A stretch of DNA of 64,000 nt from a virus (lineage: Duplodnaviria > Heunggongvirae > Uroviricota > Caudoviricetes): the IMG/VR virus record IMGVR_UViG_3300035696_001272. One strand, written 5' to 3'. Position 1 is the first letter of the stretch. Each line of letters starts with the position of its first letter. The notes under the pieces were generated by a model. The model saw nothing but the letters and a program-made list of their open reading frames with translations, had not been told where the DNA came from and did no database searches. Below, one piece after another: positions 24,840-62,375 of this stretch. The translations under genes were made by a program, and so were the position numbers.

Positions 24840-25088
24840 TTGTGGGAATATGTTGCCGTGATGTGGAACGAATTAAGTTACGAGCTTCAGCTCAAGGTAA
24901 TCAGTCTAATACAAGACGATCTACTATTAAAACAAACGGATATAGATCTACAAGATGGGCTAGTTGCTGCCTTGGCAGAATTGGAAACTTGGAGCAATTC
25001 TCCATGTCCTATCTCTGAGGATTACGATGAGTATCCTTATGTTGCACAGGCAGTTGATCAAGAGGATCTGAATGATAACGATAACTGA
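24840..25088 (+). CDS. hypothetical acidic protein
   Basis: 82 aa. Confidence 0.35.
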   Translation: MWEYVAVMWNELSYELQLKVISLIQDDLLLKQTDIDLQDGLVAALAELETWSNSPCPISEDYDEYPYVAQAVDQEDLNDNDN

Positions 25089-25395
25089 AAAGGCCATTAA
25101 GGCTGTCAAGAGCATTTCAGATGATGAAGGCATTGGCTATTACATAGTTAGACTCAAAGTGAAGGGTGGGGGTTGTGCTGGCTTCACTTACGATATGTAT
25201 TTTGACGATCTAATCAATGAAGCCGATGAAGTCATTGAAACCGATGGCATCAAAGTGGTTGTGGATCCATTATCCGTCCAATATCTGGAAGGCGTAACCG
25301 TTGATTTCGTTGATGACACATACGGTAGGGGATTCAAATTCATCAACCCTAATGCTACTGGCAGTTGTGGTTGTGGTTCAAGTTTTAGTGTGTAA
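25072..25395 (+). CDS. HesB/IscA-family Fe-S cluster insertion (A-type carrier) protein
   Basis: GGGCAGFTY...GSCGCGSSFSV: the three conserved Cys of A-type carriers. Confidence 0.65.
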   Translation: MITITEKAIKAVKSISDDEGIGYYIVRLKVKGGGCAGFTYDMYFDDLINEADEVIETDGIKVVVDPLSVQYLEGVTVDFVDDTYGRGFKFINPNATGSCGCGSSFSV

Positions 25396-25397
25396 TC

Positions 25398-25667
25398 ATG
25401 ATTTGTGAAGTCTTCCAAGTTAACGATAATCCTGATCATCTACTATTGGTAACACTGGACGGTGAAGTTATCAATGGATTCTGGCATATCAATAATGCTG
25501 ATAAGTATGGTCTTAAGATAACCATGTTGGGCTACATTGAGTGGCCTTGGAAAAATGAATCTGATAATGAGGATTACAATATCACTCTTGCTAGGTTCAG
25601 AGATGGCGAAAGAGCGGCAGTGGAAACGTGTCCTACCTGTGGTCATAAAGAATGGAAAAGTAAATGA
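25398..25667 (+). CDS. hypothetical protein with C-terminal CPTCGH knuckle
   Basis: 89 aa. Confidence 0.35.
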   Translation: MICEVFQVNDNPDHLLLVTLDGEVINGFWHINNADKYGLKITMLGYIEWPWKNESDNEDYNITLARFRDGERAAVETCPTCGHKEWKSK

Positions 25668-26812
25668 GCAAGCATCCTGTATTAGATTTGATTGAGAAGA
25701 GAAGCCCACATCTTGGGTGGATACAGGAAGGAACTGTCTTGTTGGTTCGACATGGTTCTCATGCTTATGGTACCAACACAGCCACCTCAGATGAAGACTT
25801 CAAAGGCATTGCTATTCCTCCTAGAAAGTATTTCCTAGGAACCATGCATCGTTTTGAGCAAGCTGAATTGAAAGCTCCAGATCCAGATGCTGTTATCTAT
25901 GACATTCGTAAATTCTTCAATCTGGCTGCCGATTGCAACCCGAACATCATCGAAGTGTTGCATACTGATCCTTCGGACCACTTCATTGTGGACCCAATCG
26001 GTGAAGTCATCTTGGAACACAAGAACGAATTCTTGTCTAAGAAAATCAAGCATACCTTCTTGGGTTACTCCGTGGCTCAATTGAAGAGAATCAAGACTCA
26101 CAAGCGCTGGATTATGAATCCACCTAGCGCCCCTCCTACAAGAGCTAGCTTGGGATTGCCAGAACAGACTTTGATTCCAAACGATCAGCTGATGGCTGCC
26201 ACAGCTGAAGTGCAAAAGGAATTGGATCGATTCCAGTTCGATTTCATGGAAGGTTTGGAAGAGTCTCAAAAGATTGGGATTCGTACTACTGTTTCTGAAA
26301 TGCTGGCGGAACTCAAAATCACTGCCGATCAGCATTGGGAAGCTGCGGCTCGCAAGATTGGCCTGACTGATAACTTTATTGAAATCATGCAGCGCGAGCG
26401 CCAGTACACCAGCGCTAAACGTGAGTGGGATCAGTATCAGAACTGGAAAAAGACTCGTAACCCAACTCGTTCCGCCTTGGAAGAGAAGTTTGGTTACGAT
26501 ACTAAACATGCCTATCACTTGGTCCGACTCATTCGTATGTGTCGAGAGATCTTGACCACAGGTGTTGTTCAAGTGAAAAGACCTGACCGAGAAGAACTGT
26601 TGGCTATTCGTAACGGAGCTTGGACTTATGATCAGTTGATTGAATTCGCTGATCGTGAGGACAAAGCCCTTGCCGAGTTGTATAACACTTCTACAGCTTT
26701 GCCTAAGACGCCCGACAAAGAAAAGCTGGATCAACTTTGTATTCGATTGGTGCAAATGGCCTTGTCGAAATACTCGTGGTACAACGTCCGTAAACTATTT
26801 GGAGGCTCTTGA
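25664..26812 (+). CDS. Pol-beta-superfamily nucleotidyltransferase (PF10127 'predicted nucleotidyltransferase'-like; RNA-repair associated)
   Basis: ATGA overlap; LVRHGSHAYGTNTATSDEDFKGIAI = hG[GS]-x10-DxD NTase core; 382 aa. Confidence 0.5.
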   Translation: MSKHPVLDLIEKRSPHLGWIQEGTVLLVRHGSHAYGTNTATSDEDFKGIAIPPRKYFLGTMHRFEQAELKAPDPDAVIYDIRKFFNLAADCNPNIIEVLHTDPSDHFIVDPIGEVILEHKNEFLSKKIKHTFLGYSVAQLKRIKTHKRWIMNPPSAPPTRASLGLPEQTLIPNDQLMAATAEVQKELDRFQFDFMEGLEESQKIGIRTTVSEMLAELKITADQHWEAAARKIGLTDNFIEIMQRERQYTSAKREWDQYQNWKKTRNPTRSALEEKFGYDTKHAYHLVRLIRMCREILTTGVVQVKRPDREELLAIRNGAWTYDQLIEFADREDKALAELYNTSTALPKTPDKEKLDQLCIRLVQMALSKYSWYNVRKLFGGS

Positions 26813-27219
26813 TGTTTGCCTATTTGTTTGCATCTTTATTTGAATTTGCATTGATTGTGGTTGCCGTAGTGGTGGTGTATCAGGTCTTCTTGTCAGACCT
26901 GATTGCCGCCAAACGCTCTCAATGGAAAGAGAGTAAAGAGAAGTACAGTAGCATGGATAAGATTGCTCAAGTCAAATTAGTATCGGATGATGCCAAGGAG
27001 ATTGAGAAATTCGTGACAGACAATGCCCAATTCATATCCAACAATATGGTTAACAAATTGGTCGAGCGTATTGAGTATTTACATGCTGACAAATACATTG
27101 CCAGCAATGAAGATACGTTGAAGAAGCGCATTGCCGATTTACCTCAGCAACCTGAGGCAGAAGAGATTGGCGTGCTGGATGAGTCAGCTGATAAAAAGAC
27201 TAAAACTAAAAGGAAGTAA
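26809..27219 (+). CDS. membrane-anchored coiled-coil protein
   Basis: N-terminal TM segment FEFALIVVAVVVVYQVFL. Confidence 0.4.
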   Translation: MMFAYLFASLFEFALIVVAVVVVYQVFLSDLIAAKRSQWKESKEKYSSMDKIAQVKLVSDDAKEIEKFVTDNAQFISNNMVNKLVERIEYLHADKYIASNEDTLKKRIADLPQQPEAEEIGVLDESADKKTKTKRK

Positions 27220-27220
27220 T

Positions 27221-27790
27221 ATGCCAAGACCATTAAACCCCAATGTACTTGTAATTGATGTAGAAAGCACCTGTTGGGAGCTACCCGAAATACAAGGTAA
27301 AGATGAAATCTCTGAGATTATCGAAATTGGTATTGCCGTTGTTAATATCAACGATCTCAAGATTATCAAAAATGATTCGATTATGGTTCGCCCCCAAAGA
27401 TCAAAAGTTAGCAAGTTTTGCACCAAATTGACTACCTTAACCCAAGAAATGGTTAATAAGGGAGTTTTATTCAGTGAAGCTATGAGAATTCTGAAGAAGG
27501 ATTATCAATCAGATGATAGCACTTTCGTTAGTTGGGGAGACTACGATCGCAAGATGTTTGAGAGGAACTGTCGTGACTATGAGGTCAAGTACCCCTTTGG
27601 ACCGCGCCATATGAATCTTAAAAATTCTTTCACCATGCTCCATGGGCTGGACAGAGAACCGGGCCTTGATACCGCCCTGGATTATCTTGGAATGAAACTA
27701 GAAGGCACTCATCACCGAGGGGTTGATGATGCGAAAAACATTGCTAATGTCTTTATTCATACCTTAAAGCAATTTAGGGGTATCGAGTAA
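27221..27790 (+). CDS. DEDDh 3'-5' exonuclease (DnaQ/oligoribonuclease-like)
   Basis: LVIDVESTC (Exo I DxE), FVSWGDYD (Exo II), HRGVDDAKNIANVF (Exo III H..D). Confidence 0.6.
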   Translation: MPRPLNPNVLVIDVESTCWELPEIQGKDEISEIIEIGIAVVNINDLKIIKNDSIMVRPQRSKVSKFCTKLTTLTQEMVNKGVLFSEAMRILKKDYQSDDSTFVSWGDYDRKMFERNCRDYEVKYPFGPRHMNLKNSFTMLHGLDREPGLDTALDYLGMKLEGTHHRGVDDAKNIANVFIHTLKQFRGIE

Positions 27791-27808
27791 TTTTCAGGCA
27801 TTAACTTA

Positions 27809-28156
27809 ATGGAAGCAAACAAGAATTACCAGATTACTGTTTCGCCGGAAGCGGCCAAACAGGTTAAGCTTCAGCTGGAAAAGCGAGGGACTCCAAATGC
27901 CCATCTTAGATTGGGTGTTAAGGGTGCCGGCTGTTCTGGCTATTCTTACGTTATTCAATTTGAAGATTCTGCTCCAAGAGAGAAAGACAAACTCTTTCAA
28001 ATGCATGACATCAGTGTCGTAGTAGATATTAAGAGCTTGGTTTACCTTAATGGTTGTACTTTAGATTGGGAAAAGACCTTAATACATCAGGGCTTCAAGT
28101 TCATTAATCCGAATGAGAAGTCAAAATGTGGATGCGGTCATTCTTTCTCAGTTTGA
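27809..28156 (+). CDS. HesB/IscA-family Fe-S cluster insertion protein (second copy)
   Basis: GAGCSGYSY...KCGCGHSFSV. Confidence 0.65.
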   Translation: MEANKNYQITVSPEAAKQVKLQLEKRGTPNAHLRLGVKGAGCSGYSYVIQFEDSAPREKDKLFQMHDISVVVDIKSLVYLNGCTLDWEKTLIHQGFKFINPNEKSKCGCGHSFSV

Positions 28157-28169
28157 TAAAGGAATTAAC

Positions 28170-28394
28170 ATGATTCATGGAATCTACCTACGAAGCAGGC
28201 CCAAAAACAAGTGGCACCTAGTGTCATTAGCAATGTCTCCAGAAGCAGCAAATCTTGAGATAGCAACTTTCAAAAAGCAAGCTGAACAAGAGGGTAACGA
28301 ACAAGCGGAAGTGGCTGTCCAAATTTTCGATACAGTCTTCTGGATTCCTGAGTATGTAGACGAGATTAAAGAACAAAAACCAATGTTCAATTAA
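28170..28394 (+). CDS. hypothetical protein
   Basis: AAGGAA RBS before ATG 28170. Confidence 0.35.
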   Translation: MIHGIYLRSRPKNKWHLVSLAMSPEAANLEIATFKKQAEQEGNEQAEVAVQIFDTVFWIPEYVDEIKEQKPMFN

Positions 28395-28397
28395 GCT

Positions 28398-29348
28398 ATG
28401 TTATCACAAGATTTTTACGATTACTTATTGCACTTCGAGATAAATGAAGCGTCTCCCGAAAGCCTGGCAAATTTTACCAAGCTTGTGGAGTTAAATAAAG
28501 TATTTGAATATATGTTTGAAACATATATTAATCAACGTCTGAAAGAAAATTTCCACTCTCAGTATCTGTTGAATTTGATTCGTAATCTAGAAAAATCAGA
28601 GAAGACTAGTCATCTTAGTAAGTTGGTCAATGAGCGGTTAGTGGTCTTCATGACCATAAATAGAGAGTGCTTTGATCATTTCTATTATTTATACCGTAAT
28701 GAATTCCGTAAAGAAAGAAATGTTCTTGACGCCCTGATTGAGAATTTGGGCAGAACGCCTCAATCTCGGTTTGAAGAGATGATGCAAATTATCGACTTGA
28801 TTTCTCCCAATATTGGTATCGACAAGTATTCTCTAATACTTCTAATAATGGAATCGAAGGGCCCTGGCGGTAAAGCTCGCAGGTTACTTAACAGTGTAGT
28901 TATGGGTAAGCTAGAAGTGCCCGATCGCTACATGGTTCTAGTTAGGGCTGTGGAAAAACATAGTTCCCAAGTTTATGATTTACAAAACGCCCTGGTTGCA
29001 GAGTTTAAAGTCTTTGTCTCCAATCAATTCAAAACGAACAAAGATCAGGACGTTTTAGCATTGGCTTTACAAAGATGCATGCTTCCAATTACTCAATTGT
29101 ACAATTGTACATTCTTGAATGAGGTCTTATATCATAATGCAGAAAACATTCCACATACTCTAGACTATTTATACCATAGGGCTGAGTCTGAGAATTTATG
29201 GGAATATCTTCTTCTATTAGGCGTTAATAAGAACAAAAAAGAGTTGTTACAGAGTATTGTTAAATCCAAGAGTCATCGTCTAATTGATAAATTTTTCTTA
29301 CTATACAAGAATTACCCAGAGGTAAAGCATCTTGCTCCTTTCCTATGA
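28398..29348 (+). CDS. hypothetical protein
   Basis: 316 aa; helical. Confidence 0.45.
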   Translation: MLSQDFYDYLLHFEINEASPESLANFTKLVELNKVFEYMFETYINQRLKENFHSQYLLNLIRNLEKSEKTSHLSKLVNERLVVFMTINRECFDHFYYLYRNEFRKERNVLDALIENLGRTPQSRFEEMMQIIDLISPNIGIDKYSLILLIMESKGPGGKARRLLNSVVMGKLEVPDRYMVLVRAVEKHSSQVYDLQNALVAEFKVFVSNQFKTNKDQDVLALALQRCMLPITQLYNCTFLNEVLYHNAENIPHTLDYLYHRAESENLWEYLLLLGVNKNKKELLQSIVKSKSHRLIDKFFLLYKNYPEVKHLAPFL

Positions 29349-29388
29349 GATGGCATGTTATATAGTTACATGATATCTCAAGGGAAAC

Positions 29389-30495
29389 ATGTCGAATGCT
29401 CTGAATCTCACAGAAATAGATCAAGAACAAGCTCTTAATCTTACCAAGTTTTTTATCCAATCACAACAGAATGTTTTTTTGTTTGGAAGACGAGGTGTAG
29501 GTAAGACAGACATTGCTATTCAAGCGGCCAAAGAATGTGGATATAAAATCAATTATATTAATCTAAGTGTAATTGAAAGGCCTGATTTGGCTGGCTATCC
29601 AGATATGAATACGGAAAGCGATATCATTAATTATAAATCGCCCCACTTCTTACCAAAGCTTCTACCTGATTCTAAACCAGACAGTATTATTCTGTTTGAT
29701 GAAGTGGATAAAGTTCAAGCAGAAGTAACCGCTCCCCTATTAGAGATTCTATTGTTCAAGAAGATCAATGGTATACCCATCAATGCTGCTGCCTGTATTT
29801 TAACCGGCAACTTGATGAATGAAGGCGCTTACTCCAATGAGCTTAGTTCAGCCTTGTTAGATCGAGGCGCTAAGTACATTTTGACATTCAATTTTGAAAA
29901 GTGGGTGGATTGGGCCAAGGCACATAACGTGCATGATCTTATTCTCGGTTTTTTGCGCAGCGATCCAGATTTTGCTTGTGGAAAAGTAGAAGAATCTGTT
30001 TACGCTTCGCCATCACCTAGAAGTTGGACATGGGCATCACAAGCTTTGTTGAAGGCCAAGGAACTCAAAATAGGCGATATAGATTCGGTCACCCAAATCA
30101 TCTCCGGTTATGTCGGATTTGAAGCGGCCCTAAGGTTCAAAATTTGGTATGAGTATTTTCGTAAGTTTGAGCCTTTCGTTCATTCACTAATTGAACGTGG
30201 CGAAATGTCTCTCGATTTCAGTAGCTTAGCACCTACTGAGAAAGTTGTCTTCGTAGTATCTGCTTGTTATTATGCAAAACAGAAAGTCTTTTCTGTGAAA
30301 TCTAAGAATAGATTTGTATATCTAGAGCACTTATGTAACTTTTTCAACCAATACAAAGTAGAAGCTGAAGTTCAGGTCATGGGGTTACATAACTCTTTTG
30401 ATTTTGACATGATCAGGGCGCACAAGCTATACACTTGTCAGCCATTTTTTGATCACTTTACTAAGTTGAGTGAGAACGTTACATTCAAGAAGTGA
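29389..30495 (+). CDS. MoxR-like AAA+ ATPase (paralog of 19903..21030, no adjacent VWA partner)
   Basis: FGRRGVGKTD, ILFDEVDKV, LTGN; same domain order as the first copy. Confidence 0.6.
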   Translation: MSNALNLTEIDQEQALNLTKFFIQSQQNVFLFGRRGVGKTDIAIQAAKECGYKINYINLSVIERPDLAGYPDMNTESDIINYKSPHFLPKLLPDSKPDSIILFDEVDKVQAEVTAPLLEILLFKKINGIPINAAACILTGNLMNEGAYSNELSSALLDRGAKYILTFNFEKWVDWAKAHNVHDLILGFLRSDPDFACGKVEESVYASPSPRSWTWASQALLKAKELKIGDIDSVTQIISGYVGFEAALRFKIWYEYFRKFEPFVHSLIERGEMSLDFSSLAPTEKVVFVVSACYYAKQKVFSVKSKNRFVYLEHLCNFFNQYKVEAEVQVMGLHNSFDFDMIRAHKLYTCQPFFDHFTKLSENVTFKK

Positions 30496-30502
30496 TGACG
30501 CA

Positions 30503-30531
30503 CCCTTGACATCCTATTTATAGGATTTAAG
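30503..30531 (+). promoter_or_regulatory. conserved promoter-like motif CCCTTGACATCCTATTTATAGGATTTAAG (copy 1)
   Basis: 26 of 29 nt identical to 36806-36834; contains TTGACA, a 16 nt spacer and TAAGCT; 14 nt before the trx ATG. Confidence 0.45.
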
Positions 30532-30545
30532 CTCTAAAGCGAGGC

Positions 30546-30878
30546 ATGATGAGTGAAGTAGTACATGTAGATGATAATAATTTTGAAGCCGAAGTTCTCA
30601 ATTCCAAAGTACCAGTTTTGGTAGATTTTAGCGCAACTTGGTGTGGACCTTGTCAAAGACAAATGCCACTATTAGAAAAGTTCGCCATTGAAAATGGTGA
30701 ACGTGTGAAAGTCGTTAAAGTGGATATTGATGATGCTCCAGTGATTACCGCCAAATTAGGCGTAAGAGGAGTACCAACACTAATGTTGTTCAATGGAGGA
30801 AGTTCATTGGGCTCCAAGGTTGGCTTAACAAGCTTAGCTGAGATGAATAACTTCTTCTTGACTAAGATTACTGGCTAA
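30546..30878 (+). CDS. trxA: thioredoxin
   Basis: WCGPCQ active site; 110 aa. Confidence 0.85.
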   Translation: MMSEVVHVDDNNFEAEVLNSKVPVLVDFSATWCGPCQRQMPLLEKFAIENGERVKVVKVDIDDAPVITAKLGVRGVPTLMLFNGGSSLGSKVGLTSLAEMNNFFLTKITG

Positions 30879-30904
30879 GTTACGTTTTAACAATTTAATA
30901 TTGA

Positions 30905-30937
30905 AAAAGGGCCGGCGTTTGCTGGCCTTTAGCTTTT
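30905..30937 (+). terminator. rho-independent terminator
   Basis: AAAGGGCCGGC-GTTT-GCTGGCCTTT hairpin, then a T-rich run. Confidence 0.55.
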
Positions 30938-30944
30938 TGATCAA

Positions 30945-31136
30945 ATGAATATTTATATCGCATCCCTCTATCTAAAAGAGGGTATTAAAGTTCGTCGCCA
31001 AGGCTGGAACCAAATCAAAGGTTGGGAACAAATCAAATATCTCAGCTTGGATAACATCCAGTTTATCAAATTATCACTAGATGATTTGATAGCAACCGAT
31101 TGGGAACTTGTTACAGAGGACAATCATGTGGTTTGA
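30945..31136 (+). CDS. hypothetical protein
   Basis: 63 aa. Confidence 0.3.
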   Translation: MNIYIASLYLKEGIKVRRQGWNQIKGWEQIKYLSLDNIQFIKLSLDDLIATDWELVTEDNHVV

Positions 31137-31383
31137 AGATTTAATGCTATTGGTATTGTTGGCTAGCGGAATTTTCCTTATTGGAATTCCAGCTTTCAAG
31201 TTCGCAAAACTAGTTATACCTCGCAAGAGAGACGCTTTAGCGGAAGCTAAGGAAAGACTTGAGCGGGCTCGTATAGATTTGGAAGCCGCTAAGGTAAACA
31301 AAGAAGCCGATAAGCTTTACGAAGATTTGTATGAAGAGGCTCTCCAAGATGAAGAGCAAATCCAACAGGAGAAACATAAATGA
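31108..31383 (+). CDS. small membrane protein with coiled-coil tail
   Basis: LMLLVLLASGIFLIGIPAF TM segment. Confidence 0.35.
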   Translation: MLQRTIMWFEDLMLLVLLASGIFLIGIPAFKFAKLVIPRKRDALAEAKERLERARIDLEAAKVNKEADKLYEDLYEEALQDEEQIQQEKHK

Positions 31384-32624
31384 GTAAGACAGAAGAAAAT
31401 TCCCTGACCGCCTTGATTATCAAGATTGGTCTTGGATTGGTTGTGTTAATAGTTGGCGTTATCCTTATTGCCAACATGGTTACTACAGTCGGTGCCGATG
31501 AAATTGTCATTAAGCAGGACTTAGTGGGTGGCCAGCTGCATGTGTGGGACACATCTGGTGTTCACTGGCAGAACTTTGGTACCGTCACTCGTTACAAGAG
31601 AAGTGCTCAGCTTTGGTTTAGTGCCAAGGAAGACGAGGGCAAGAAGACCGATGACTCCATCAAGGTGAGGTTTAACGATGGTGGTCACGGTAACATCAGC
31701 GGTTCGTTGCGTTACACCCTTCCAGTTGATCCTAACAAGATGATTGCTCTGCATCAAACTTATCATTCCATGGAAGCTATCGACCATGAATTGGTTCGCC
31801 AAGTGGTCAACAAGAGCGTCTTTATGAGCGGTCCTCTGATGAGTTCTCGTGAGTCTTATGCTGAGAAGCGAGCCGATCTCATCAATTACATCACTGACCA
31901 AATCGTTTATGGTGTCTATCGCACAGAGCATGATCAAGCCAAGACTATTGATCCTATTACTGGACAAGAGAAGGTGATTGAGACCGTCAAGCCCAAGCAG
32001 AAGGTTGGAGCACCCAACGGTATCGAGCGTGAAGAGGAAAGCCCAATTCAACGTTTTGGTATGAATGCATCGAACATTACCATCAATGGTATTGAGTACG
32101 ATCCTGAAGTAGAGAAACAGATTCAGCAACAGCAACAGGCTACCATGGCAGTCCAACAGGCTATCGTGAACGCCAAGAAGGCTGAACAAGACACTCTGAC
32201 TGTGGAACAACAAGGTAAGGCTGCTGCGGCTAAGGCCAAGTGGGACCAGGAAGTTCAAAAGGCTACAGCTGTGACCGCTGCTGAGCAAGAGAAGGCAGTT
32301 GCTGTGACTAAGGCTGAGAAGGACAAAGAAGTTGCTCAACTCAGTTTGGATACAGCCAAGCTAGCTGCTCAACAGACCATTACGGAAGCCAAGGCTGAAG
32401 CAGATGCTAAGAAACTACAAGTTCAGGCTAACAACAACTTGCAAGATAGATTGGCAGCATATGTGGACGTTCAGAAGGCATGGGCAGCAGCTTATGGCAG
32501 CCAGCGTCAAACTCCTGATATCCTCATGAGCGGTGGTAATAGCAGTGGTGGCGTTAATCAGTCACTAGTTGATTTGATGACTGTCAAGACAGCTCGTGAC
32601 CTCAACGTTAGCCCCAAGCCATGA
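31380..32624 (+). CDS. SPFH/band-7 (prohibitin/flotillin-like) membrane protein with Ala/Gln-rich coiled coil
   Basis: ATGA overlap; N-terminal TM LIIKIGLGLVVLIVGVILIA; band-7-like core; long QQQQATMAVQQAIV...AKAEADAKK coiled coil. Confidence 0.5.
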   Translation: MSKTEENSLTALIIKIGLGLVVLIVGVILIANMVTTVGADEIVIKQDLVGGQLHVWDTSGVHWQNFGTVTRYKRSAQLWFSAKEDEGKKTDDSIKVRFNDGGHGNISGSLRYTLPVDPNKMIALHQTYHSMEAIDHELVRQVVNKSVFMSGPLMSSRESYAEKRADLINYITDQIVYGVYRTEHDQAKTIDPITGQEKVIETVKPKQKVGAPNGIEREEESPIQRFGMNASNITINGIEYDPEVEKQIQQQQQATMAVQQAIVNAKKAEQDTLTVEQQGKAAAAKAKWDQEVQKATAVTAAEQEKAVAVTKAEKDKEVAQLSLDTAKLAAQQTITEAKAEADAKKLQVQANNNLQDRLAAYVDVQKAWAAAYGSQRQTPDILMSGGNSSGGVNQSLVDLMTVKTARDLNVSPKP

Positions 32625-32992: not shown

Positions 32993-33294
32993 TGATTCTA
33001 GCTAAGCCGGAAAAACCACAAAAGAAGATAACTCAAAGACAAACTGCGACTTACAACTTTGATTGGGTTAGTAAGAAAGTTTCTTGGGATGGTTTTCTAG
33101 ATTGGGCTAAGGAAACTATTCCGGCTGGCGCTAAAGACGTTACGCTGGAACTAATAGAAGATTGGCAATATGATGATTGCATTACATATCTAGAATTATC
33201 TTGGGATGAGATAGTTACTAATCCTAATTATGATAAAGAGATGAAGAAGTACGAAAGGAAACTTGCAAAGTGGAAAAAAGAATGCCAAGAGTAA
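32989..33294 (+). CDS. hypothetical protein
   Basis: 101 aa. Confidence 0.35.
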   Translation: MMILAKPEKPQKKITQRQTATYNFDWVSKKVSWDGFLDWAKETIPAGAKDVTLELIEDWQYDDCITYLELSWDEIVTNPNYDKEMKKYERKLAKWKKECQE

Positions 33295-34782: not shown

Positions 34783-34803
34783 AAGTTTTAATGAGGTAAT
34801 GTT

Positions 34804-36791: not shown

Positions 36792-36805
36792 TTTTAGAAA
36801 ATAAG

Positions 36806-36834: not shown

Positions 36835-36842
36835 ATAGGTGT

Positions 36843-38288: not shown

Positions 38289-38292
38289 AATT

Positions 38293-40092: not shown

Positions 40093-40096
40093 GTTG

Positions 40097-40878: not shown

Positions 40879-40879
40879 G

Positions 40880-48678: not shown

Positions 48679-48679
48679 G

Positions 48680-50436: not shown

Positions 50437-50446
50437 TTCGCCGCCT

Positions 50447-51311: not shown

Positions 51312-51386
51312 TTGTTTTTCTAACCGTCAACGTGGTTATATCAATATTATTTTATCCCTATAGTGCTCGTCATGCGGATGCGGTAA

Positions 51387-52625: not shown

Positions 52626-52655
52626 GTGATGCAATGATATACATTTTGGAAGGAA

Positions 52656-54233: not shown

Positions 54234-55126
54234 ACAGACTCCATAGAGCTAACGGTTTTTTCCAGTCCGGCCTTTAATGATGTGAAAGAAATATCTGGCA
54301 TTATTGTTTTCAGATAAGAGTTGCTAACAGTTTTTATTAGGTTTCCATCTGATTTGCTAGTATCAAATTGTATTTGATTTTTGAAATTCAGCACCTCTGC
54401 TATTTGATTTGCCAACTCGGCAATAGTAATTTCAGTATCTGCACAACAAATGATTGGCTTGGTATCTGAGTAATTTACAACTAAATGTTTGATTATTCTA
54501 GCTAAATCAAGAGAGTAAATGAATTGTCGTAATGGTTTTCCTGTTCCATTGATTACTACATCTGTATTATCTTTAGATGCCTTTTTAAATTTAGTGATGA
54601 GATTAGGGATTAATCGACCTGAGCTTAGATTATCGTTTGGCCCATAGATATTGCAGGGAATAATTCCAAAATATTTTTTCTCATATTGAGTATTATAATT
54701 TTGACATTGTAATTCTAGCATTCTCTTGGAATAAGAATAGCCGGCAAAAGCGCCAGTTAAATGACCATCAAAAATCATTGATTCATCCATTGGGAAAGCT
54801 TTTGGCTTTTCAGGGAACATATTCACAGAAAGACAGAACATGCCCCTCTCCACTCCCGCCAAGCTAGAAGCCTCTAGCACATTTTCATTTATTCTTACGT
54901 TGCTGGAAAAGGAGGCAACCCTGTCAATGTTGTAAAAACCCGGAACGTAGGATGCCAGATGAACCACATAGTCTGGATCAATTCTTTTGAACATCTCAAT
55001 AGTGTGCTCTTTATTCGTAAGATCACAATCTCGCCTATCGGCAAAGAACCAGTTGTCTTCGCCTTCACACACGGATTTCAAAGCGCTTCCTACACAGCCA
55101 TTGCTGCCTGTCACAAGAATTTTCAT
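54230..55126 (-). CDS. Fcl-like NAD(P)-dependent sugar epimerase/reductase
   Basis: ILVTGSNGCVGS; YSYSK; NIYGPNDN...IPNLITKF parallels Fcl (LYGPHDN..IPALLRRF). Confidence 0.55.
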   Translation of the reverse strand: MKILVTGSNGCVGSALKSVCEGEDNWFFADRRDCDLTNKEHTIEMFKRIDPDYVVHLASYVPGFYNIDRVASFSSNVRINENVLEASSLAGVERGMFCLSVNMFPEKPKAFPMDESMIFDGHLTGAFAGYSYSKRMLELQCQNYNTQYEKKYFGIIPCNIYGPNDNLSSGRLIPNLITKFKKASKDNTDVVINGTGKPLRQFIYSLDLARIIKHLVVNYSDTKPIICCADTEITIAELANQIAEVLNFKNQIQFDTSKSDGNLIKTVSNSYLKTIMPDISFTSLKAGLEKTVSSMESV

Positions 55127-56307
55127 GATGGGTAACTCAATAGTATATCAACCAACTCTTCAACTAAAGAGTCGGGCATCAGGTTGCACGATAAGCCGAT
55201 AAATAATCCACTAAAATGGCACTCCTCGGCCCCCGGAAAATCAAGAGCGTTTAAATCAGAATACAGATCTTTGATGACCGGTTGTCTAATTATGTTACCA
55301 GTAATAATTGGCCTATTCTCAACGCCATGGGTAGTTAGGTAATCTAAATAATCCGATAACTTAATATCTTTTCTTAAAAACAAAGTTACACCAAACCAAG
55401 CTATGTCGGCGTTGTCACTTTCCTTAGCGAAAGAAAGAAAGGTACTTCTTGGATCGCTTTCTATTTTTCTTTTGATATTGTAATAGTTTATCTTTCTATT
55501 ATCATTCTTGACTTTCAACTTTTGAAGTTGGCCAATACCCATTGAAGCCTGTATTTCCATCGGCCTTACATTGTAACCTAAATTGACAAACGTAAACCTT
55601 GGGTCCAAATCTGGATATTGTGCTTGGATTTGTTCTTCGTCTTTTAGATTCCTAGACCATCCATGAGCACGAAGACACTTCATTAGTTCATAGTGTTCAT
55701 TGTCATTACAAATTATCATTCCACCTTCCATTGTTGTTATGTGGTGGGAGTAATAAAATGAATATGTTCCAATAGAGCCAAAAGTTCCCAAGTATTTGTC
55801 ATTGTATTTAGAGCCTAATGACTCACATGTATCTTCTATCAAAATTAAATTGTAGCGGGTAACGATGTCTATTAGTTTCTTCATATCGGTACAGTTTCCA
55901 AGGACATGAACAAGCATAATGGCTTTTGTCTTATTAGTTATCTTTTTTTCAAGATCATACAAGTCTATATTCAAAGTTTGTGGATTTACATCAACAAATA
56001 TTGGAGTAAGATTACATTGAATAATGGGGAAAATGCTGGTAGACCAACACAGTGCCGGAACCAAAACTTCATCTCCCGGAACTAATCTATTATTACATTT
56101 GTAATTTGTAAGGACAGATAAAGCAATCAGGTTGGCCGACGAACCAGAATTTACCATCATTGCATGTTTGATCCCAATATATTCAGCAAACATTTTTTCG
56201 AAACTACTAACCTGTTCACCCATGGTAAATTTTCCAGTAATTAAAGTTTCGATCATGTTGAGAATATCTTCAGAATCATGAACATTTTGTCCCAATGGAA
56301 ATTTCAT
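55123..56307 (-). CDS. DegT-family PLP aminotransferase/dehydratase (second copy)
   Basis: MVNSGSSANLIAL; TYSFYYSHHITTMEGGMI. Confidence 0.6.
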   Translation of the reverse strand: MKFPLGQNVHDSEDILNMIETLITGKFTMGEQVSSFEKMFAEYIGIKHAMMVNSGSSANLIALSVLTNYKCNNRLVPGDEVLVPALCWSTSIFPIIQCNLTPIFVDVNPQTLNIDLYDLEKKITNKTKAIMLVHVLGNCTDMKKLIDIVTRYNLILIEDTCESLGSKYNDKYLGTFGSIGTYSFYYSHHITTMEGGMIICNDNEHYELMKCLRAHGWSRNLKDEEQIQAQYPDLDPRFTFVNLGYNVRPMEIQASMGIGQLQKLKVKNDNRKINYYNIKRKIESDPRSTFLSFAKESDNADIAWFGVTLFLRKDIKLSDYLDYLTTHGVENRPIITGNIIRQPVIKDLYSDLNALDFPGAEECHFSGLFIGLSCNLMPDSLVEELVDILLSYPS

Positions 56308-57371
56308 TTTGTGCTCGCGATACTGGTAAGTATTTCTTGCCAGCTATTATAAATGGATGCCCTTCTCATCTCATTATGGGTGGCCATACTGTTACTGATT
56401 TCATGCGTATTTACTATTCGTAGTAAATGTTCTAGGTGAGCTGGCGAATCAAAGTATTGAATGTGTTTCATATTCCCCTCATCATAAAAATCACAAGTAT
56501 CTAGCCATTTATTCAAAACTGCCGGATTACGAAGACTATTAGGATTATTAATATCATCTGGCTCTTGCGCCCTATTTATTCTGTAAAAAGTCAAATCAGA
56601 CAAAGCTCTATTTTGATGAAACAATTCTTTCATGTATGTTTTAGATGGGAAAAACATAGGAACATTTGCAGTATAGTGTTCGAATATTGACATGGATCCA
56701 TTATGATAGGGCACATGAATTGTCCCCTTATAACTATAAAGATCCTGCCAACTATATCTCCAGGAGGAATTTCTAACTGCCCCAAGACTGATGCATATAT
56801 TACCAGGAACCGTTATTTCTGATCGATCATGGATAACATATTGGTTTTTAGTTCCAGTATATTTTGCATTTGTATATTCACATAAACTTGGAATATGCAT
56901 GCCTTGAATTCCAGTCATATATTGTGTGTACCACTGATCGCCCTTATTATTACAAACGTAATATAATTTTCCTTCTGTATGTCGGCGCTTTAAAAATTCG
57001 TTCAATCTATCTCTGAGGGTTGGATTAAAAGTATTGGGATGATCGTATCTAATACAGTTTACTATTATAATCGGCTTATTGAATTTTTCATAAAGAAGCG
57101 CAAATTCTACCGGATAACAGGCAATAAAGGCATCATATTTTTGTAATTCATCTTTATTTTGCTGATAAAATTTATCGCAAACTTCTTCGGTACAGACTCC
57201 TGAACAAGTTAATTGTGTACCATCACTAAGCATAATTTTGGGTTTTGGTTTATTCATCACCCAATGATGGCCAGATAAAGACCAATCAACTACTTCATGT
57301 CCCAGATTTTTAAAGATATATGCTATGTCAGCGATTACTGAAACGTGCTGGTCTATATTGAAAAATTTCAT
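56304..57371 (-). CDS. hypothetical protein in the glycan cluster
   Basis: 355 aa; no motif. Confidence 0.35.
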   Translation of the reverse strand: MKFFNIDQHVSVIADIAYIFKNLGHEVVDWSLSGHHWVMNKPKPKIMLSDGTQLTCSGVCTEEVCDKFYQQNKDELQKYDAFIACYPVEFALLYEKFNKPIIIVNCIRYDHPNTFNPTLRDRLNEFLKRRHTEGKLYYVCNNKGDQWYTQYMTGIQGMHIPSLCEYTNAKYTGTKNQYVIHDRSEITVPGNICISLGAVRNSSWRYSWQDLYSYKGTIHVPYHNGSMSIFEHYTANVPMFFPSKTYMKELFHQNRALSDLTFYRINRAQEPDDINNPNSLRNPAVLNKWLDTCDFYDEGNMKHIQYFDSPAHLEHLLRIVNTHEISNSMATHNEMRRASIYNSWQEILTSIASTK

Positions 57372-57979
57372 TTGCCTTTACCTTTCGCTTTCTTTTGTAC
57401 CTTTTTAGATAAGCGAATACAAACTTGGGACTTATGTTCGAGATAATACATTTCAACATCATGATCCATCATGTATGGAGTCATGATATTATATAGCGTG
57501 TATGGAGAAAACCAGTACTTATGATCTGGGTGAACGGACTCTACACAATATTCATCATGCATAAATAATTGTCCGGTTCCCATATTAGGAACGGTTATTA
57601 TTATCTCTTTGTGCTCGATAGCAAATAAACTGTCTAAAAACTCTTTAGCATTCCAAACGTGTTCTAATACTTCAGGAACAATAATCACATCATATTTAGA
57701 ATCGCATTCTTTAAAATTTGTGAAATAAGTTCCTGGGCACGCTTCATTTAACTTGTCTAAATACATTTTGTTTGTATCTACACCATGCAATCTCTTAACT
57801 TTTTTAGCTAGATAGATATGAAGGTTGCTATCAGGATCGAAAACCATTGCATCAGCACAACCCACATGTAGAGTTTTCTTTTTAGCACAAATCTTTTCGA
57901 AGAATTTAAACCTATGTGTACCAATATTTTTAATAGTGATATACTGGACAAAAAAATCGTTTGTCCTATTGTAAGTCAT
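57368..57979 (-). CDS. class I SAM-dependent methyltransferase
   Basis: LHVGCADA (motif I); VLEHV. Confidence 0.5.
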   Translation of the reverse strand: MTYNRTNDFFVQYITIKNIGTHRFKFFEKICAKKKTLHVGCADAMVFDPDSNLHIYLAKKVKRLHGVDTNKMYLDKLNEACPGTYFTNFKECDSKYDVIIVPEVLEHVWNAKEFLDSLFAIEHKEIIITVPNMGTGQLFMHDEYCVESVHPDHKYWFSPYTLYNIMTPYMMDHDVEMYYLEHKSQVCIRLSKKVQKKAKGKGK

Positions 57980-58689
57980 ATTCTAATCCATTCTTTGGGT
58001 AACAAGTCTTTTGTATCATGTGGTAAAGCTGGACCAAACCAACCCTGTGGAGCAATAACGATTTTGGAAGGGCTTTTGTTCAGATAAGCTCCCCACCACG
58101 AAAAGCTACTATTAGCAATGATAGTGTGCTCACAATTTGCCATCATCGCTAAATCTCGTGCAGGAGATCCGCCTTCATAAAATATGATGTTGTCACCATG
58201 GAAATTCGCCCTGCACCAGGCCATGTCATCTGAAAATATAACATAGTGTTTTGATGATATCATTTGCATGGCTGTAGCATAATAATTCATATCTAACTGA
58301 ACATATTCTCGTCTGAGATTGAGATAATCTCCTCTGCGAACATGTACTGCCGTATGATTATAATGGATACCAAACCCCATTTTAGGTGTGAAAAGGCTTT
58401 GTATAACATCTTTAGAATCAGCGAAATACTTTTCTGATTGAAAATATCCTTCGAGATTCAAATTTGGTCGATAAGGAATTTTGGTGTATGTAAATCCTGG
58501 CTCTCTGAATGTATCAAAATTTGGAATGTTATTGGCAAAACATTCAATCAAATTAAAATTGGGCGCATCTGGCCATGGTGGAAATACATAGTCATCATTA
58601 TTTTCTACAGCCAATGCCACGGTGGCAGCCATTTGAAATAACTGATTACCCAATCTTCCTAAGTTTCCCAAGTTTTTAAAAGAAATCAT
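57976..58689 (-). CDS. alpha-1,2-fucosyltransferase (GT11 family)
   Basis: GRLGNQLFQMA (GT11 motif I); AVHVRRGDY (HxRRGD). Confidence 0.65.
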   Translation of the reverse strand: MISFKNLGNLGRLGNQLFQMAATVALAVENNDDYVFPPWPDAPNFNLIECFANNIPNFDTFREPGFTYTKIPYRPNLNLEGYFQSEKYFADSKDVIQSLFTPKMGFGIHYNHTAVHVRRGDYLNLRREYVQLDMNYYATAMQMISSKHYVIFSDDMAWCRANFHGDNIIFYEGGSPARDLAMMANCEHTIIANSSFSWWGAYLNKSPSKIVIAPQGWFGPALPHDTKDLLPKEWIRI

Positions 58690-61094
58690 TGGCGTATATT
58701 ATGATGGTCCTTGTCCAGTAGCATAATTCTTGGATGGAAAACATTGCCACCCCACATCTTTTTGTATCTTTCGATATTAGACTGTGGATAATGATAACTT
58801 GGTGTTAGGCTCAATGGCGGATGATCTAAGAAATATCTGTTAATAGCAGTTTCATCATGCCAAACTGGAATGATACCATTAGATACATCTTTATCAATCA
58901 TATCGCTACACCAGCTGGACAGTGCCAAATAATTGGCCTTTTTACCTCCACTAAATCCACCACCATAGTATTGCTTATACTTACTGCGATCTTGAACATA
59001 AAATACTGAGTTTGGATTTTCTTCGTAAGGTCCAACCCTTTGGACAAATCCACAGTGTTGTACGCCAACTAAATCGCCTAAGATTTCGCTATTTACGCGA
59101 TCAACAAATAAGCAATCTATATCTACATAGAATAGATAATCTTGTCTATTCAGCTTGTCAGCATTTTTGGTAAAGTGTTTGAATCTATCCATACTAGCAT
59201 ATGGGAAGGGTCTGTGCTCGATGTTTATCTGAACTATATTGCGCTTACTACTAATTGTATGATTGGCGTCACTAAATAGAAAATAAGTGACATCATAGTT
59301 ATCATCCATAAAGTAATTGTCTGCCGATGAAATAAGTCCTTGAATAAATCTATGATATTTACCGGTTGCTATAAGTAGCAATCCTATGGCAGTTTTTGGT
59401 ACTGGTGGCCTTTGAGTTCTTGCATATCTCGGTTTGCTTCTAATGAAACCGTCCAAACTTGCTTGCAATTGACGACTGACTTTGTGATCATTAATTGGAT
59501 TATCAAGATTGTACACATATAGTATGTCAGATAAAAATTGAGAATGTGAGCCGGACATTTCCAACATTGGGAACATCATGGCAAAATCCCAAGTCATCTG
59601 GAAAAAGACACCGTCCTTCATCAAATCTTCTTTTTTGATTCTCTTAAATAACCAGGTATAAAAGGTTCTCAAGTGAGAAGCGCCCCATCTAAATGATCTG
59701 AATGAATTTGAATCTACCACTTCCTGTGGATAAGGAGAGGATACGCCGCCCTGACCATCTGTACTGTTTTTATATTGACCATAAGTCAACCAGATATCTC
59801 GACTGGTGTAAACTTCTCTTAGGCGACCAAGTACATTATCATGTGGAAACCAATCATCACCATCTAATGTAAGGATGATCTCATCATCATCACAGCTCAT
59901 GATCATGTTGTATAGGTTGGCGAGAGCGCCCATACGAGTAGTATTTTTTATCAAAGTAACTCTGTAAGCATTGGGTGAAGCATTAACTGCTTCACTTACC
60001 TTAGCAAAGGTATCATCACTAGAACAATCATCGGTGAAGATTATTCTGAACTTGTCGTAATTTTGAGTTAGGGCAGAATTAATATTTTGAACACACCATC
60101 TGCTATTATTGTAGCTTGGAATAACGATGACAAATCTTTTGTTAGGATCTTCAAAGCTAGGCACCCCGTTTGGCGCTGTGCTTAATTGTGGGGGTGGCGG
60201 TGGGGTTGGAGCTGGTGTATTATTGCCAGTATCCCAAACCAATTTATCTCCAGATACTTTCCAGGTCCCTGTTGTTGCCTGAGTTGTCGGCTGTGGCTGC
60301 TCTTGTGTTTGAACATGATGTGAGGTTGGTGGTTTTGGACTGGCCGTTAAAACAAGTGGCGGTATATTCGGTTGCGTAACTTCAGCAAAACCCATATTTG
60401 AATTAACTGGCTGTAAAGTTATTGCTTGTTGTGGCGGCAACACATCCTGAACTGTATTGGCAACAGTATTTTTAACGGCAAACCAAATTCGTCGTTTATT
60501 TAGAGAAGTACTATTATCATTCTGGGACTGCCAGTCGTATACATAATCACCCGCATTAAATTTGGCATTGTCCATACGTTTAAAAGTCATTCCACAAGCT
60601 GTCAAAACTCTTTCGATGGCTGCTGCGGTTGGTCGACATCCCATACCACTATAGGCCAAATCATAAACGTCCTTTCCCTCTGGAACTTGAACGCACATGT
60701 TTGGATCACTAGAATCACAAACGGCAGTCTCTAGTACTAAATAAGTAGTAGAAGCACAAACTGCCTTCAAATGATCTTCGAAGGAAGCTAAATGGCAGAT
60801 TAGAGCCAAATCTAAAATCAAATCAAATTTCTGACCAAAAAAAGGCCACGGACCATCCAGGTTGGCCTTGACCACCTTGACACCAGCAAATTTCTTGCTT
60901 ACTATCTTTAAGTGCTCTTGGCGGGCATCGATGGCGGTTATTTCTGAGCCTAAACGATATAAAGAGCCACTTAGATCAGCGTGCCCACATCCCAAATCAG
61001 CTATTTTCTTGCCATAAAATTCTTTGTAGCCATAGTATTCTATGATGGCCTTGATACGCTTTTGATTCCATTCAAAGTACTTACCGTCAAACAT
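58686..61094 (-). CDS. tri-domain protein: SAM methyltransferase - Pro/Thr/Gln-rich linker - GT2 glycosyltransferase - GT6 (ABO/alpha-1,3-Gal(NAc)-transferase-like) domain
   Basis: IADLGCGHADLSG (MTase motif I); FVIVIPSYNN...FTDDCSSDDT (GT2); C-terminal YYGGGFSGG...NGIIPVWHDETAINRYFL parallels the human ABO/a3GalT segment YLGGFFGGSV...NGIEAVWHDESHLNKYLL. Confidence 0.6.
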   Translation of the reverse strand: MFDGKYFEWNQKRIKAIIEYYGYKEFYGKKIADLGCGHADLSGSLYRLGSEITAIDARQEHLKIVSKKFAGVKVVKANLDGPWPFFGQKFDLILDLALICHLASFEDHLKAVCASTTYLVLETAVCDSSDPNMCVQVPEGKDVYDLAYSGMGCRPTAAAIERVLTACGMTFKRMDNAKFNAGDYVYDWQSQNDNSTSLNKRRIWFAVKNTVANTVQDVLPPQQAITLQPVNSNMGFAEVTQPNIPPLVLTASPKPPTSHHVQTQEQPQPTTQATTGTWKVSGDKLVWDTGNNTPAPTPPPPPQLSTAPNGVPSFEDPNKRFVIVIPSYNNSRWCVQNINSALTQNYDKFRIIFTDDCSSDDTFAKVSEAVNASPNAYRVTLIKNTTRMGALANLYNMIMSCDDDEIILTLDGDDWFPHDNVLGRLREVYTSRDIWLTYGQYKNSTDGQGGVSSPYPQEVVDSNSFRSFRWGASHLRTFYTWLFKRIKKEDLMKDGVFFQMTWDFAMMFPMLEMSGSHSQFLSDILYVYNLDNPINDHKVSRQLQASLDGFIRSKPRYARTQRPPVPKTAIGLLLIATGKYHRFIQGLISSADNYFMDDNYDVTYFLFSDANHTISSKRNIVQINIEHRPFPYASMDRFKHFTKNADKLNRQDYLFYVDIDCLFVDRVNSEILGDLVGVQHCGFVQRVGPYEENPNSVFYVQDRSKYKQYYGGGFSGGKKANYLALSSWCSDMIDKDVSNGIIPVWHDETAINRYFLDHPPLSLTPSYHYPQSNIERYKKMWGGNVFHPRIMLLDKDHHNIRQ

Positions 61095-61122
61095 ATTTAA
61101 CCTTATTAGTATTAGGTTTTAT

Positions 61123-61869
61123 TCACATCGCAGGACCATGATATGGAATAAAAACTGGTTTGGTATGACCCATATAAGCATAACAATTTTGATGAAATTT
61201 AGCTAGATTATCTTTGTGGCACTTGGTTTTGAACTCTCGATATTCACCAACATCTAAAGCTCCCTCTCCAAAATGGACGCCCTTATTTTTAAGATAACCC
61301 ATTTCCCAACCCTTCATACGAGCACGGAAGTAGAAGTCGGCGTCTTCTTCGCCATAAAGCCCGTAATCAGTAGTAAAGAAACCAATTGCCTCATGAAGCT
61401 CTTTATGGAATACTGAACAAGCAGTTCCTAAATTACCAATTGGTTTTAGCTGAAATGTTTTACCATTTCTAGTTACCATAGGAAAACTTGTGGTTTCAAA
61501 ATTAATACCAACTGCTATTTTATGATTATCACTGATAATATCAGTACATTCTGTTAACCAATTGTCTGATAATTCAATGTCATTATCAATTGTACATAAG
61601 AATTCAGAATCTGGTGTGAGTTTGTCGGCTAAGAGCAAGCCCTGATTTCTACCAGCAGCAATACCTTCATTAGCTGCATTGAGATGAAGGTGGCAAGTTA
61701 TCGGAGATTTTTCTTTAAATGCTGTCAACCAATCTTGAGTTCCATCAGTGGATCCGTTATCCACAACTATCAATGTATAGGGACTTTTGGTATTAGCGAG
61801 CAAGCTATCTAACATTCGTTTGGTCAATTCGAGTCGGTTGTAAGTTACCATCATTATTGAAGTCGTCAT
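61123..61869 (-). CDS. GT2-family glycosyltransferase
   Basis: IMMVTYNRLELT...LIVVDNGSTDGT; internal DNDIE. Confidence 0.65.
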   Translation of the reverse strand: MTTSIMMVTYNRLELTKRMLDSLLANTKSPYTLIVVDNGSTDGTQDWLTAFKEKSPITCHLHLNAANEGIAAGRNQGLLLADKLTPDSEFLCTIDNDIELSDNWLTECTDIISDNHKIAVGINFETTSFPMVTRNGKTFQLKPIGNLGTACSVFHKELHEAIGFFTTDYGLYGEEDADFYFRARMKGWEMGYLKNKGVHFGEGALDVGEYREFKTKCHKDNLAKFHQNCYAYMGHTKPVFIPYHGPAM

Positions 61870-61934
61870 GATAATCTCTCATATATCTTGATGATGAGGG
61901 TACATATTTTTTGGTATATAGAAAAGGAAATTAA

Positions 61935-62375
61935 ATGCCGTACAGCGATAAAGTTCTAGAACATGCAGAGAATCCCAAAAATGTTGGCACTCTGGATAAA
62001 TCTGATCCCAATGTGGGAACTGGTTTGGTTGGCGCTCCTGCTTGTGGTGATGTTATGCGCCTGCAAATCAAAGTTGATCCTGAGACGAATGTTATTTTAG
62101 ATGCCAAGTTCAAGACTTTCGGTTGTGGTTCGGCAATTGCCGCTTCATCTTTGGCAACAGAATGGATCAAAGGCAAGACGGTTGATGAAGCAGAGGCTTT
62201 GAAGAATTCTGATTTGGTAGAAGAGTTAAATTTGCCACCTGTTAAGATTCATTGCAGCGTTTTAGCTGAAGATGCTATCAAATCAGCTATTGCAGATTTT
62301 CGTGCCAAACAAAAGAAACAGGAGGAAGACCATGGCGCTAATATTGTCAGGCAAGTCAGTTTGCCCATTGTGTGA
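61935..62375 (+). CDS. iscU: Fe-S cluster assembly scaffold IscU
   Basis: HAENPKNVG, GAPACGDVM, FKTFGCGSAIASSS, conserved His in KIHCSVLAEDAI. Confidence 0.8.
   Translation: MPYSDKVLEHAENPKNVGTLDKSDPNVGTGLVGAPACGDVMRLQIKVDPETNVILDAKFKTFGCGSAIAASSLATEWIKGKTVDEAEALKNSDLVEELNLPPVKIHCSVLAEDAIKSAIADFRAKQKKQEEDHGANIVRQVSLPIV

Follow-up and report, generated by a model that had tools for sequence, protein, structure and literature searches.

A huge bacteriophage encodes an IscU scaffold and two A-type iron-sulfur carriers with no cysteine desulfurase nearby

Introduction

The 64,000-nucleotide viral DNA stretch IMGVR_UViG_3300035696_001272 (hereafter the window, meaning the whole stretch analyzed) carries genes for iron-sulfur (Fe-S) cluster assembly: an IscU scaffold, two A-type carriers (ATC1 and ATC2) and a thioredoxin. 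The DNA comes from a huge bacteriophage, and no cysteine desulfurase lies near these genes. We consider it likely that the Fe-S genes form an auxiliary metabolic module, one that would perform the steps of the iron-sulfur cluster (ISC) pathway that follow sulfur mobilization. The hallmarks of viral auxiliary metabolic genes (AMGs) for Fe-S assembly are all present, namely a viral genome, intact cluster ligands and the lack of a neighboring desulfurase. A clade of phages of about 0.5 Mb retains three consecutive ISC components while probably still needing its host for sulfur mobilization.

The analysis covers about 82 kb of the phage genome, whose full length is 477 kb or more. This comprises the window and two 10-kb flanking stretches, L006 upstream and L001 downstream, which together reach about 18 kb beyond the window. 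An initial annotation, made by a model from the letters alone, had proposed Fe-S functions for four open reading frames (ORFs). All four are real genes whose Pfam scores exceed the cut-offs, and the carrier cysteine triads, the IscU ligands and the WCGPC site of the thioredoxin are all in place. The loss of ligating cysteines, which that annotation had named as a possible objection, is not seen in the alignments.

The IscU scaffold

The scaffold gene (61935-62375, + strand) specifies a 146-residue protein that scores 177 bits against the Pfam family NifU_N (PF01592; cut-off 22) and passes the IscU equivalog model TIGR01999 (211.3 bits vs a cut-off of 192.4). It is 69% identical to Escherichia coli IscU, and its ligands C37, D39, C64, H106 and C107 correspond to Cys37, Asp39, Cys63, His105 and Cys106 of the E. 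coli protein. The LPPVK motif, the site of HscA recognition, is intact at residues 100-104. Ligands and motif are invariant in an alignment of 12 IscU sequences, and both are kept in 80/80 viral loci. These loci are the best 80 of at least 589 IMG/VR viral contigs with an IscU relative, and all neighborhood counts given below refer to them, within 10 kb on either side of IscU.

Two features set the phage protein apart. The window IscU ends in a polar tail, about 20 residues long and poorly conserved, and most of its closest relatives in the alignment bear a similar polar C-terminal tail of 11-27 residues with low conservation. This tail is missing in two clade members, in cellular IscU and in the IscU of T4-like phages. 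Moreover, phage-clade IscU proteins have Ala in the N-terminal helix where cellular IscU has Tyr11 (DHAENP vs DHYENP), a position that we take to lie at the interface with IscS.

Two A-type carriers of different class

ATC1 (25072-25395, + strand; 107 residues) and ATC2 (27809-28156, + strand; 115 residues) both belong to the Pfam family Fe-S_biosyn (PF01521), with scores of 76.6 and 60.3 bits, respectively, against a cut-off of 26.3. Both also pass the general carrier model TIGR00049 (123.5 and 113.2 vs 58.8). Each has a C-x(~63)-C-x-C triad (Cys35, Cys99 and Cys101 in ATC1), and the triads align to C35, C99 and C101 of E. coli IscA and to the Haemophilus influenzae protein HI1723. The triads are invariant in three syntenic relatives.

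The carriers differ in class. ATC1 marginally passes the ErpA equivalog NF010147 (118.0 vs a cut-off of 117), and its solved relatives are Aq_1857 (116.8 bits), HI1723 (99.3), E. coli IscA (79) and SufA (56). HI1723 is presumably the H. influenzae orthologue of ErpA. The best equivalog of ATC2 is IscA (TIGR02011), for which its score of 105.5 falls under the cut-off of 150.6, and its best solved relative is E. coli IscA (1r94, 89.8 bits), with HI1723 at 60.7 bits. The IscA encoded in a cellular isc operon of a Myxococcales metagenome-assembled genome (MAG) shares 51% identity with ATC2 and 41% with ATC1; the two phage carriers are 44% identical to each other. Profile scores and pairwise comparison together indicate one carrier like the ATC-I class, which includes ErpA, and one like the ATC-II class, which includes IscA, rather than a simple duplicate pair. 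By these measures, ATC2 is IscA-like and falls short of a certified IscA orthologue.

No desulfurase and no isc operon partners nearby

Pfam annotation of all window ORFs returned no member of the Aminotran_5, HscB, Hsp70-type HscA, Fer2, radical SAM or Fer4 families, and the same families are missing from both flanks. A tblastn search of window and flanks with two authentic IscS proteins gave a best E value of 3.8. The earlier statement that no desulfurase is visible therefore stands, and it now extends to the flanks. IscR, IscS, HscB, HscA, Fdx and IscX are all missing from the window and flanks, which therefore hold no cellular isc operon; the neighbors of the carriers show no weak matches to IscX, CyaY, BolA or HscB either. 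The window does encode two pyridoxal phosphate (PLP) enzymes, in a minus-strand glycan cluster. These are members of the DegT family (sugar aminotransferase or ColD-type dehydratases), and both were rejected as desulfurases, the SufS model giving 21 bits vs a cut-off of 475.

The missing desulfurase does not make this phage peculiar. IscU without a desulfurase is the viral rule, since IscS occurs near IscU in 1/80 viral loci and the arrangement has already been described in marine phages. An A-type carrier is a common companion of viral IscU (54/80 loci have a carrier nearby), whereas two carriers, divided into an ErpA-type and an IscA-type protein as here, accompany it in 1/80.

Origin of the genes in a huge phage

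Independent assemblies from ENA, JGI and Logan contain the exact IscU protein of the window, the longest contig with it measuring 476,653 nt, and the same junctions around the Fe-S genes are present in independent sample assemblies from all three sources. IscU proteins at 79-86% identity lie on contigs of 490,849, 492,102 and 511,348 nt, with the same neighbors. A 20-kb megablast query matched no GenBank phage, and hence there is no close annotated relative. The source is identified as a huge bacteriophage of roughly half a megabase, because several lines of evidence converge. Shine-Dalgarno (SD)-like motifs occur at 28 of 93 window genes, against 6 ± 2.7 expected. Several window proteins match phage-only PHROG families; the Fe-S proteins themselves have PHROG matches, IscU to phrog_8429 (NifU-like, a listed AMG; E 2.6e-36) and the carriers to phrog_17776 (1.9e-33 and 7.5e-35). 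In syntenic IMG/VR viral genomes, RIIA (E 9e-91) and RIIB (3e-68) are encoded just upstream of the ATC1 orthologue. The viral relatives in IMG/VR and the large contig complete the case.

Two other origins were weighed. A eukaryotic giant virus came to mind on account of PARP, Thg1, PTH2 and mitochondrial-type PheRS-like domains. It was rejected because of the SD motifs, the rIIA/rIIB genes of relatives and the many one-strand neighbors in the window that overlap start to stop in an operon-like manner. The second is that the Fe-S genes are cellular DNA, brought in by host contamination or a chimeric assembly. In its favor, the window IscU is 84% identical to the IscU of the Myxococcales MAG. 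Against it stand the identical junctions in independent assemblies and the conserved synteny with viral genomes of 153-511 kb that have rIIA/rIIB in the block. Moreover, the full host-like isc operon, which the initial annotation had named as a sign of contamination, was not found around the window genes or in the flanks. A cellular source is extremely improbable and, for practical purposes, refuted.

The conserved block and the place of thioredoxin

ATC1, ATC2 and thioredoxin belong to a syntenic block (24840-30878, + strand) whose gene order recurs in three IMG/VR contigs: IMGVR_UViG_3300010938_000951 (267 kb), 3300028558_000791 (481 kb) and 3300015360_001243 (153 kb). The order is a small acidic ORF, ATC1, a small ORF, an RlaP-like nucleotidyltransferase, a membrane ORF, an RNase T-like exonuclease and ATC2, followed by two unknown ORFs, a MoxR-like AAA ATPase and thioredoxin. 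The carriers are 56-68% identical to their counterparts in these relatives. Both the block and IscU are conserved across the clade, and the synteny, the cysteine triads and WCGPC site that stay invariant at 56-77% overall identity, and the invariant IscU ligands indicate purifying selection. The set had been described as dispersed over 37 kb. This holds for IscU, which lies alone 31 kb away, but not for the carriers and thioredoxin, which sit within 5.8 kb (25072-30878). IscU opens a + strand unit of its own, divergent from the glycan cluster, and this placement is kept in relatives.

Thioredoxin (30546-30878, + strand; 110 residues) has a WCGPC active site. It scores 90.6 bits against PF00085 (cut-off 23.5) and 92.8 against the equivalog TIGR01068, just below the cut-off of 96.8. 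In the three relatives it is syntenic, 64-77% identical and invariant at WCGPC. A hairpin resembling an intrinsic terminator (30907-30930, + strand; 10 pairs, 6 of them G-C, with a T-run) begins 29 nt past the thioredoxin stop and is the sole strong + strand hairpin in 24000-31500. By its match to the consensus only, it may mark the end of a transcription unit for carriers and thioredoxin. Promoter scans gave nothing above chance.

The initial annotation counted thioredoxin as part of a phage Fe-S set. The set itself is borne out by the intact ISC-type genes on a phage genome, but the tie of thioredoxin to it consists of conserved synteny and in vitro precedent, and its role in the set is putative. 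The thioredoxin reductase system is reported to promote iron loading of IscA in vitro (Ding et al., 2005, cited in PMC12683245). A different explanation, to which we assign a real chance somewhat below even, is that thioredoxin stands outside the Fe-S set and serves nucleotide metabolism or general disulfide reduction, its proximity to the carriers being a matter of phage gene order. Phage thioredoxins are indeed very common, and this one matches the nucleotide-metabolism family phrog_22. A thioredoxin-like gene lies near IscU in just 5/80 viral loci, and seven ORFs of unrelated or unknown annotation (an RNA-repair nucleotidyltransferase, an exonuclease, an AAA ATPase and others) separate ATC1 from thioredoxin. 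On the other side, the place of the gene after ATC2 and before a strong terminator-like hairpin is kept in three divergent relatives, and the window shows no ribonucleotide reductase or other thioredoxin client.

Further observations concern the block and its borders. In relatives, about 5.5 kb separates the orthologues of 24302-24838 and 24840-25088 (L090 4271-9801, and also L113 and L091). This stretch encodes RIIA, RIIB, a small ORF, adenylosuccinate synthetase (purA) and an unknown protein of 348 residues. It is wholly missing at the 24838/24840 junction of the window; either this genome has lost it or the relatives have gained it. The MoxR-like AAA ATPase (phrog_1297) is present in two + strand copies, in 19903-22817 and 28398-30495. 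After the first copy comes a DUF2201 metallopeptidase/VWA protein, which contains a long low-complexity insert rich in Gly and Gln (QGQGQG...); the second copy is the one in the block, where it lies between ATC2 and thioredoxin. In other systems, MoxR/VWA pairs act as chaperones for cofactor insertion, but any connection with Fe-S delivery here is only a speculation.

Candidate Fe-S clients

No recognizable Fe-S client is encoded in the window, in agreement with the initial annotation. The sole candidate of known family was an RfbH-like PLP enzyme (55123-56307), considered as a [2Fe-2S] enzyme of the E1/AscC type and rejected because cluster-free ColD fits better (271 bits vs 224.6 for E1); it is also a neighbor of GDP-mannose 4,6-dehydratase. 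Three Cys-rich ORFs, 4492-5118 (CX2CX2CX3C), 6401-6715 and 12825-13109 (CX3CX2C), were likewise not adopted as clients. None of them has a family match even at E <= 1, and the Cys motif is not conserved among the paralogues of the one ORF that has them. Screening all clade loci examined for motifs of radical-SAM enzymes or ferredoxins gave nothing convincing.

The paralogues form a small family of their own. ORFs 4492-5118, 19431-19793 and 41827-42216 (all + strand) share a C-terminal motif, (L/I)xK(I/L)xT/IYL(I/L)FS, and are otherwise divergent. No member has a family match, and only the longest has the N-terminal CEFCPLCSKNC sequence that contains the CX2CX2CX3C motif.

Related genomes offer a concrete candidate client. 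Quinolinate synthase NadA (PF02445) is a [4Fe-4S] enzyme, and at least six related contigs, of 492, 511, 145, 198, 139 and 268 kb, encode it 6-8 kb downstream of IscU (L186 12259-13254, L188 16092-17078, L009 10385-11392, and also L190, L194 and L196). A 407-kb contig with IscU and a carrier also encodes NadA, but elsewhere, and many further NadA homologues are found on contigs of 200-506 kb. These linkages give indirect support to the earlier suggestion that the client may be encoded elsewhere; within the clade, NadA is a concrete candidate. One homologue, P0181, is 85% identical to phage NadA, and its database entry assigns it, as an unnamed protein product, to the moss Sphagnum balticum. 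The probable source is a phage contig within a plant assembly, which hints at a peatland habitat for the clade.

Enzymes linked to NAD are clustered in and beside the window. They are two WGR-PARP_reg-PARP proteins, a NADAR domain protein and, just upstream of the window, an NAD-dependent DNA ligase (window 10073-11473, 1758-2189 and 967-1446, all + strand; L006 7821-9323 and 3380-5254). A macro-domain hint is weak (E 0.023, below threshold).

It is conceivable, though we think it rather unlikely, that the relay of IscU, IscA-type and ErpA-type proteins in this clade is dedicated to phage [4Fe-4S] enzymes, notably NadA. NadA would then supply NAD+ made de novo for the two PARPs, the DNA ligase and the NADAR protein. 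The two carriers would possibly form a heterodimer that builds [4Fe-4S] clusters, and the Tyr11 to Ala change and tail of IscU would be tuned to a phage partner.

Proposed role of the module

In the mechanism that we propose, phage IscU would receive its persulfide sulfur from the IscS of the host, and the host, including its ferredoxin, would provide iron and electrons as well. [2Fe-2S] and [4Fe-4S] clusters would be assembled on the phage scaffold, from which host HscA and HscB would free them through the intact LPPVK motif. The cluster would then pass from the IscA-type to the ErpA-type carrier and on to apo-proteins, after the E. coli relay (PMC2682760), whose two genetically defined steps are matched by the two carrier classes. 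Thioredoxin would probably keep the cysteines of carriers and scaffold reduced, or else serve unrelated redox needs. The net effect would be a greater capacity for Fe-S delivery during a long, gene-rich infection. Beneficiaries may be phage Fe-S enzymes, such as NadA in relatives, host respiratory and biosynthetic enzymes, or both. We infer the dependence on host IscS, HscBA and ferredoxin, the order of transfer, the role of thioredoxin and the clients; the intact and conserved genes themselves are observed.

Several points weigh against this interpretation. The remaining 395 kb or more of the genome could hold a desulfurase. The roughly 82 kb of window and flanks contain no recognizable Fe-S client, and NadA is missing at the syntenic site of this genome (L001), as it is in the 491-kb and 340-kb relatives (L185 and L010). 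The Tyr11 to Ala change in phage IscU could reflect an altered partner. Thioredoxins are common in phages for nucleotide metabolism, and the Fe-S link of this one may be nil. A host ISC system is presumed, and the host could have SUF only.

One competing account regards the genes as a kit for low iron or oxidative stress that sustains host metabolism by maintaining host Fe-S enzymes (aconitase, respiratory complexes, IspG/H), with phage isocitrate lyase (ICL) and malate synthase diverting carbon into the glyoxylate shunt. Both shunt genes, for ICL (7198-8430) and malate synthase A (8430-9947), belong to the same window; phage C48C1 (L005) and two further viral loci, L050 and L069, have ICL homologues close to IscU; and ErpA is the carrier that E. 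coli needs under aerobiosis (PMC2682760). Across the viral loci, however, ICL accompanies IscU in just 2/80, and in the window the shunt genes are at least 15 kb from the Fe-S genes, in separate units. The stress account is tentative and on balance unlikely, although it is compatible with an Fe-S delivery module and does not exclude one.

Alternatively, the proteins could be regulators or decoys that, by absorbing or oversupplying clusters, alter the loading of cluster-sensing host regulators such as IscR or Fur, or that titrate host IscS away from tRNA thiolation or cofactor pathways. The points in favor are indirect: the clade-specific Tyr11 to Ala change could alter IscS binding, and Fur of E. 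coli is reported to need IscU for its [2Fe-2S] loading (PMC11001641). Yet the cluster and catalytic ligands and the chaperone motif are strictly conserved, which a decoy would not need, and two carriers of different class fit delivery better. We regard a decoy function as highly improbable and prefer Fe-S delivery.

Other contents of the window and flanks

The ICL (NF011645, 707.7 bits) and malate synthase A (TIGR01344, 756.4 bits) genes overlap stop to start in 7198-9947 (+ strand) and make up a complete glyoxylate shunt on a phage. Adjacent pairs of these genes have been reported in 20 huge-phage genomes (bioRxiv 10.1101/2025.02.27.640493).

Genes for translation and RNA repair are plentiful. 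The stretch 9955-16283 holds arrays of tRNA genes, 11 in all (Leu x4, His, Glu x3, Arg x3), broken by unannotated ORFs. One ORF, 15680-16204, overlaps tRNA-Arg (15680-15755), and because of this overlap its true start probably lies further downstream. TyrRS is encoded at 17951-19144, and the flanks L001 and L006 add two Thg1 proteins, IF3, a PTH2-like protein and a PheRS-like protein. The RNA-repair complement comprises the RlaP-like nucleotidyltransferase, two PNKP-like kinase-phosphatases and three RNA ligases, two of PF09414 and one like T4 Rnl1 (25664-26812, 33270-34217, 34804-35799, 36843-37604, 38293-39540 and 42227-42892). The Fe-S carriers are embedded in this RNA-repair gene region. 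The window also encodes an Hsp20.

The glycan (nucleotide-sugar/glycosyltransferase) cluster spans 17 kb (44818-61869, - strand). It encodes GDP-mannose 4,6-dehydratase, three further epimerase/reductase-family proteins, a ColD-like 3-dehydratase and a DegT aminotransferase, together with methyltransferases, a hexapeptide acyltransferase and several glycosyltransferases, including an 802-residue multidomain protein. This enzyme content suggests that the product is a GDP-linked 3,6-dideoxy or amino sugar. The content of the cluster differs between relatives (L010, L185, L186 and L188).

Comparison with known systems

The delivery relay of E. coli runs from IscU to IscA or SufA (ATC-II), from these to ErpA (ATC-I), and on to the apo-target (Vinella et al., 2009; PMC2682760). 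The phage encodes the same three protein types with the same ligands. Unlike the E. coli ISC genes, those of the phage are not in one operon, and they are not accompanied in the window and flanks by IscR, IscS, HscB, HscA, Fdx or IscX. A similar contrast holds for the Myxococcales MAG (GCA_028817905.1), the source of the closest named cellular IscU (84% identity over 90% of length). Its locus has a regulator, IscS, IscU, IscA, HscB, HscA and Fdx in one string, whereas the phage has only IscU and the carriers. The IscU of this MAG also lacks the C-terminal tail of the phage clade and has Tyr at position 11, where the phage has Ala.

Viral genes labeled IscA require some care. A 2026 study found 322 viral IscA genes in one glacier-foreland soil data set (PMC13469137), and DsrR-type IscA-like proteins among such genes belong to the same HesB/IscA fold family as the window carriers. 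DsrR lacks iron- and cluster-binding function. The window carriers keep all three cysteines and would accordingly be bona fide carriers rather than DsrR-like regulators.

The nearest precedent is found in marine phages. Nishimura et al. (2017) described complete marine phage genomes of which 14 had a carrier and six had IscU, and they linked these genes to phage radical SAM and Cas4 enzymes (PMC5332604). As in the window, IscU and/or A-type carriers occur there without a desulfurase and are read as a boost to cluster supply; the IscU of phage C48C1 is 67% identical to that of the window. The differences lie in the carriers, the layout and the genome. Here there are two carriers, one ErpA-type and one IscA-type, and two loci 31 kb apart, whereas the marine genes are adjacent. 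The genome, 477 kb or larger, belongs to a huge phage that does not look marine, in contrast to the T4-like genomes of 150-190 kb there, and the radical SAM and Cas4 clients of the marine phages are not seen in the 82 kb covered. Phage IscU and carriers without a desulfurase had already been cataloged with the same interpretation, and the present case opens no new category. To a phenomenon documented mostly in marine phages, it contributes a huge phage of soil or peat type. Its new points are modest: a putative division of labor between ErpA-type and IscA-type carriers, the conservation of the genes in phages of about 0.5 Mb, and the linkage of IscU with NadA in relatives, which makes NadA a concrete candidate client.

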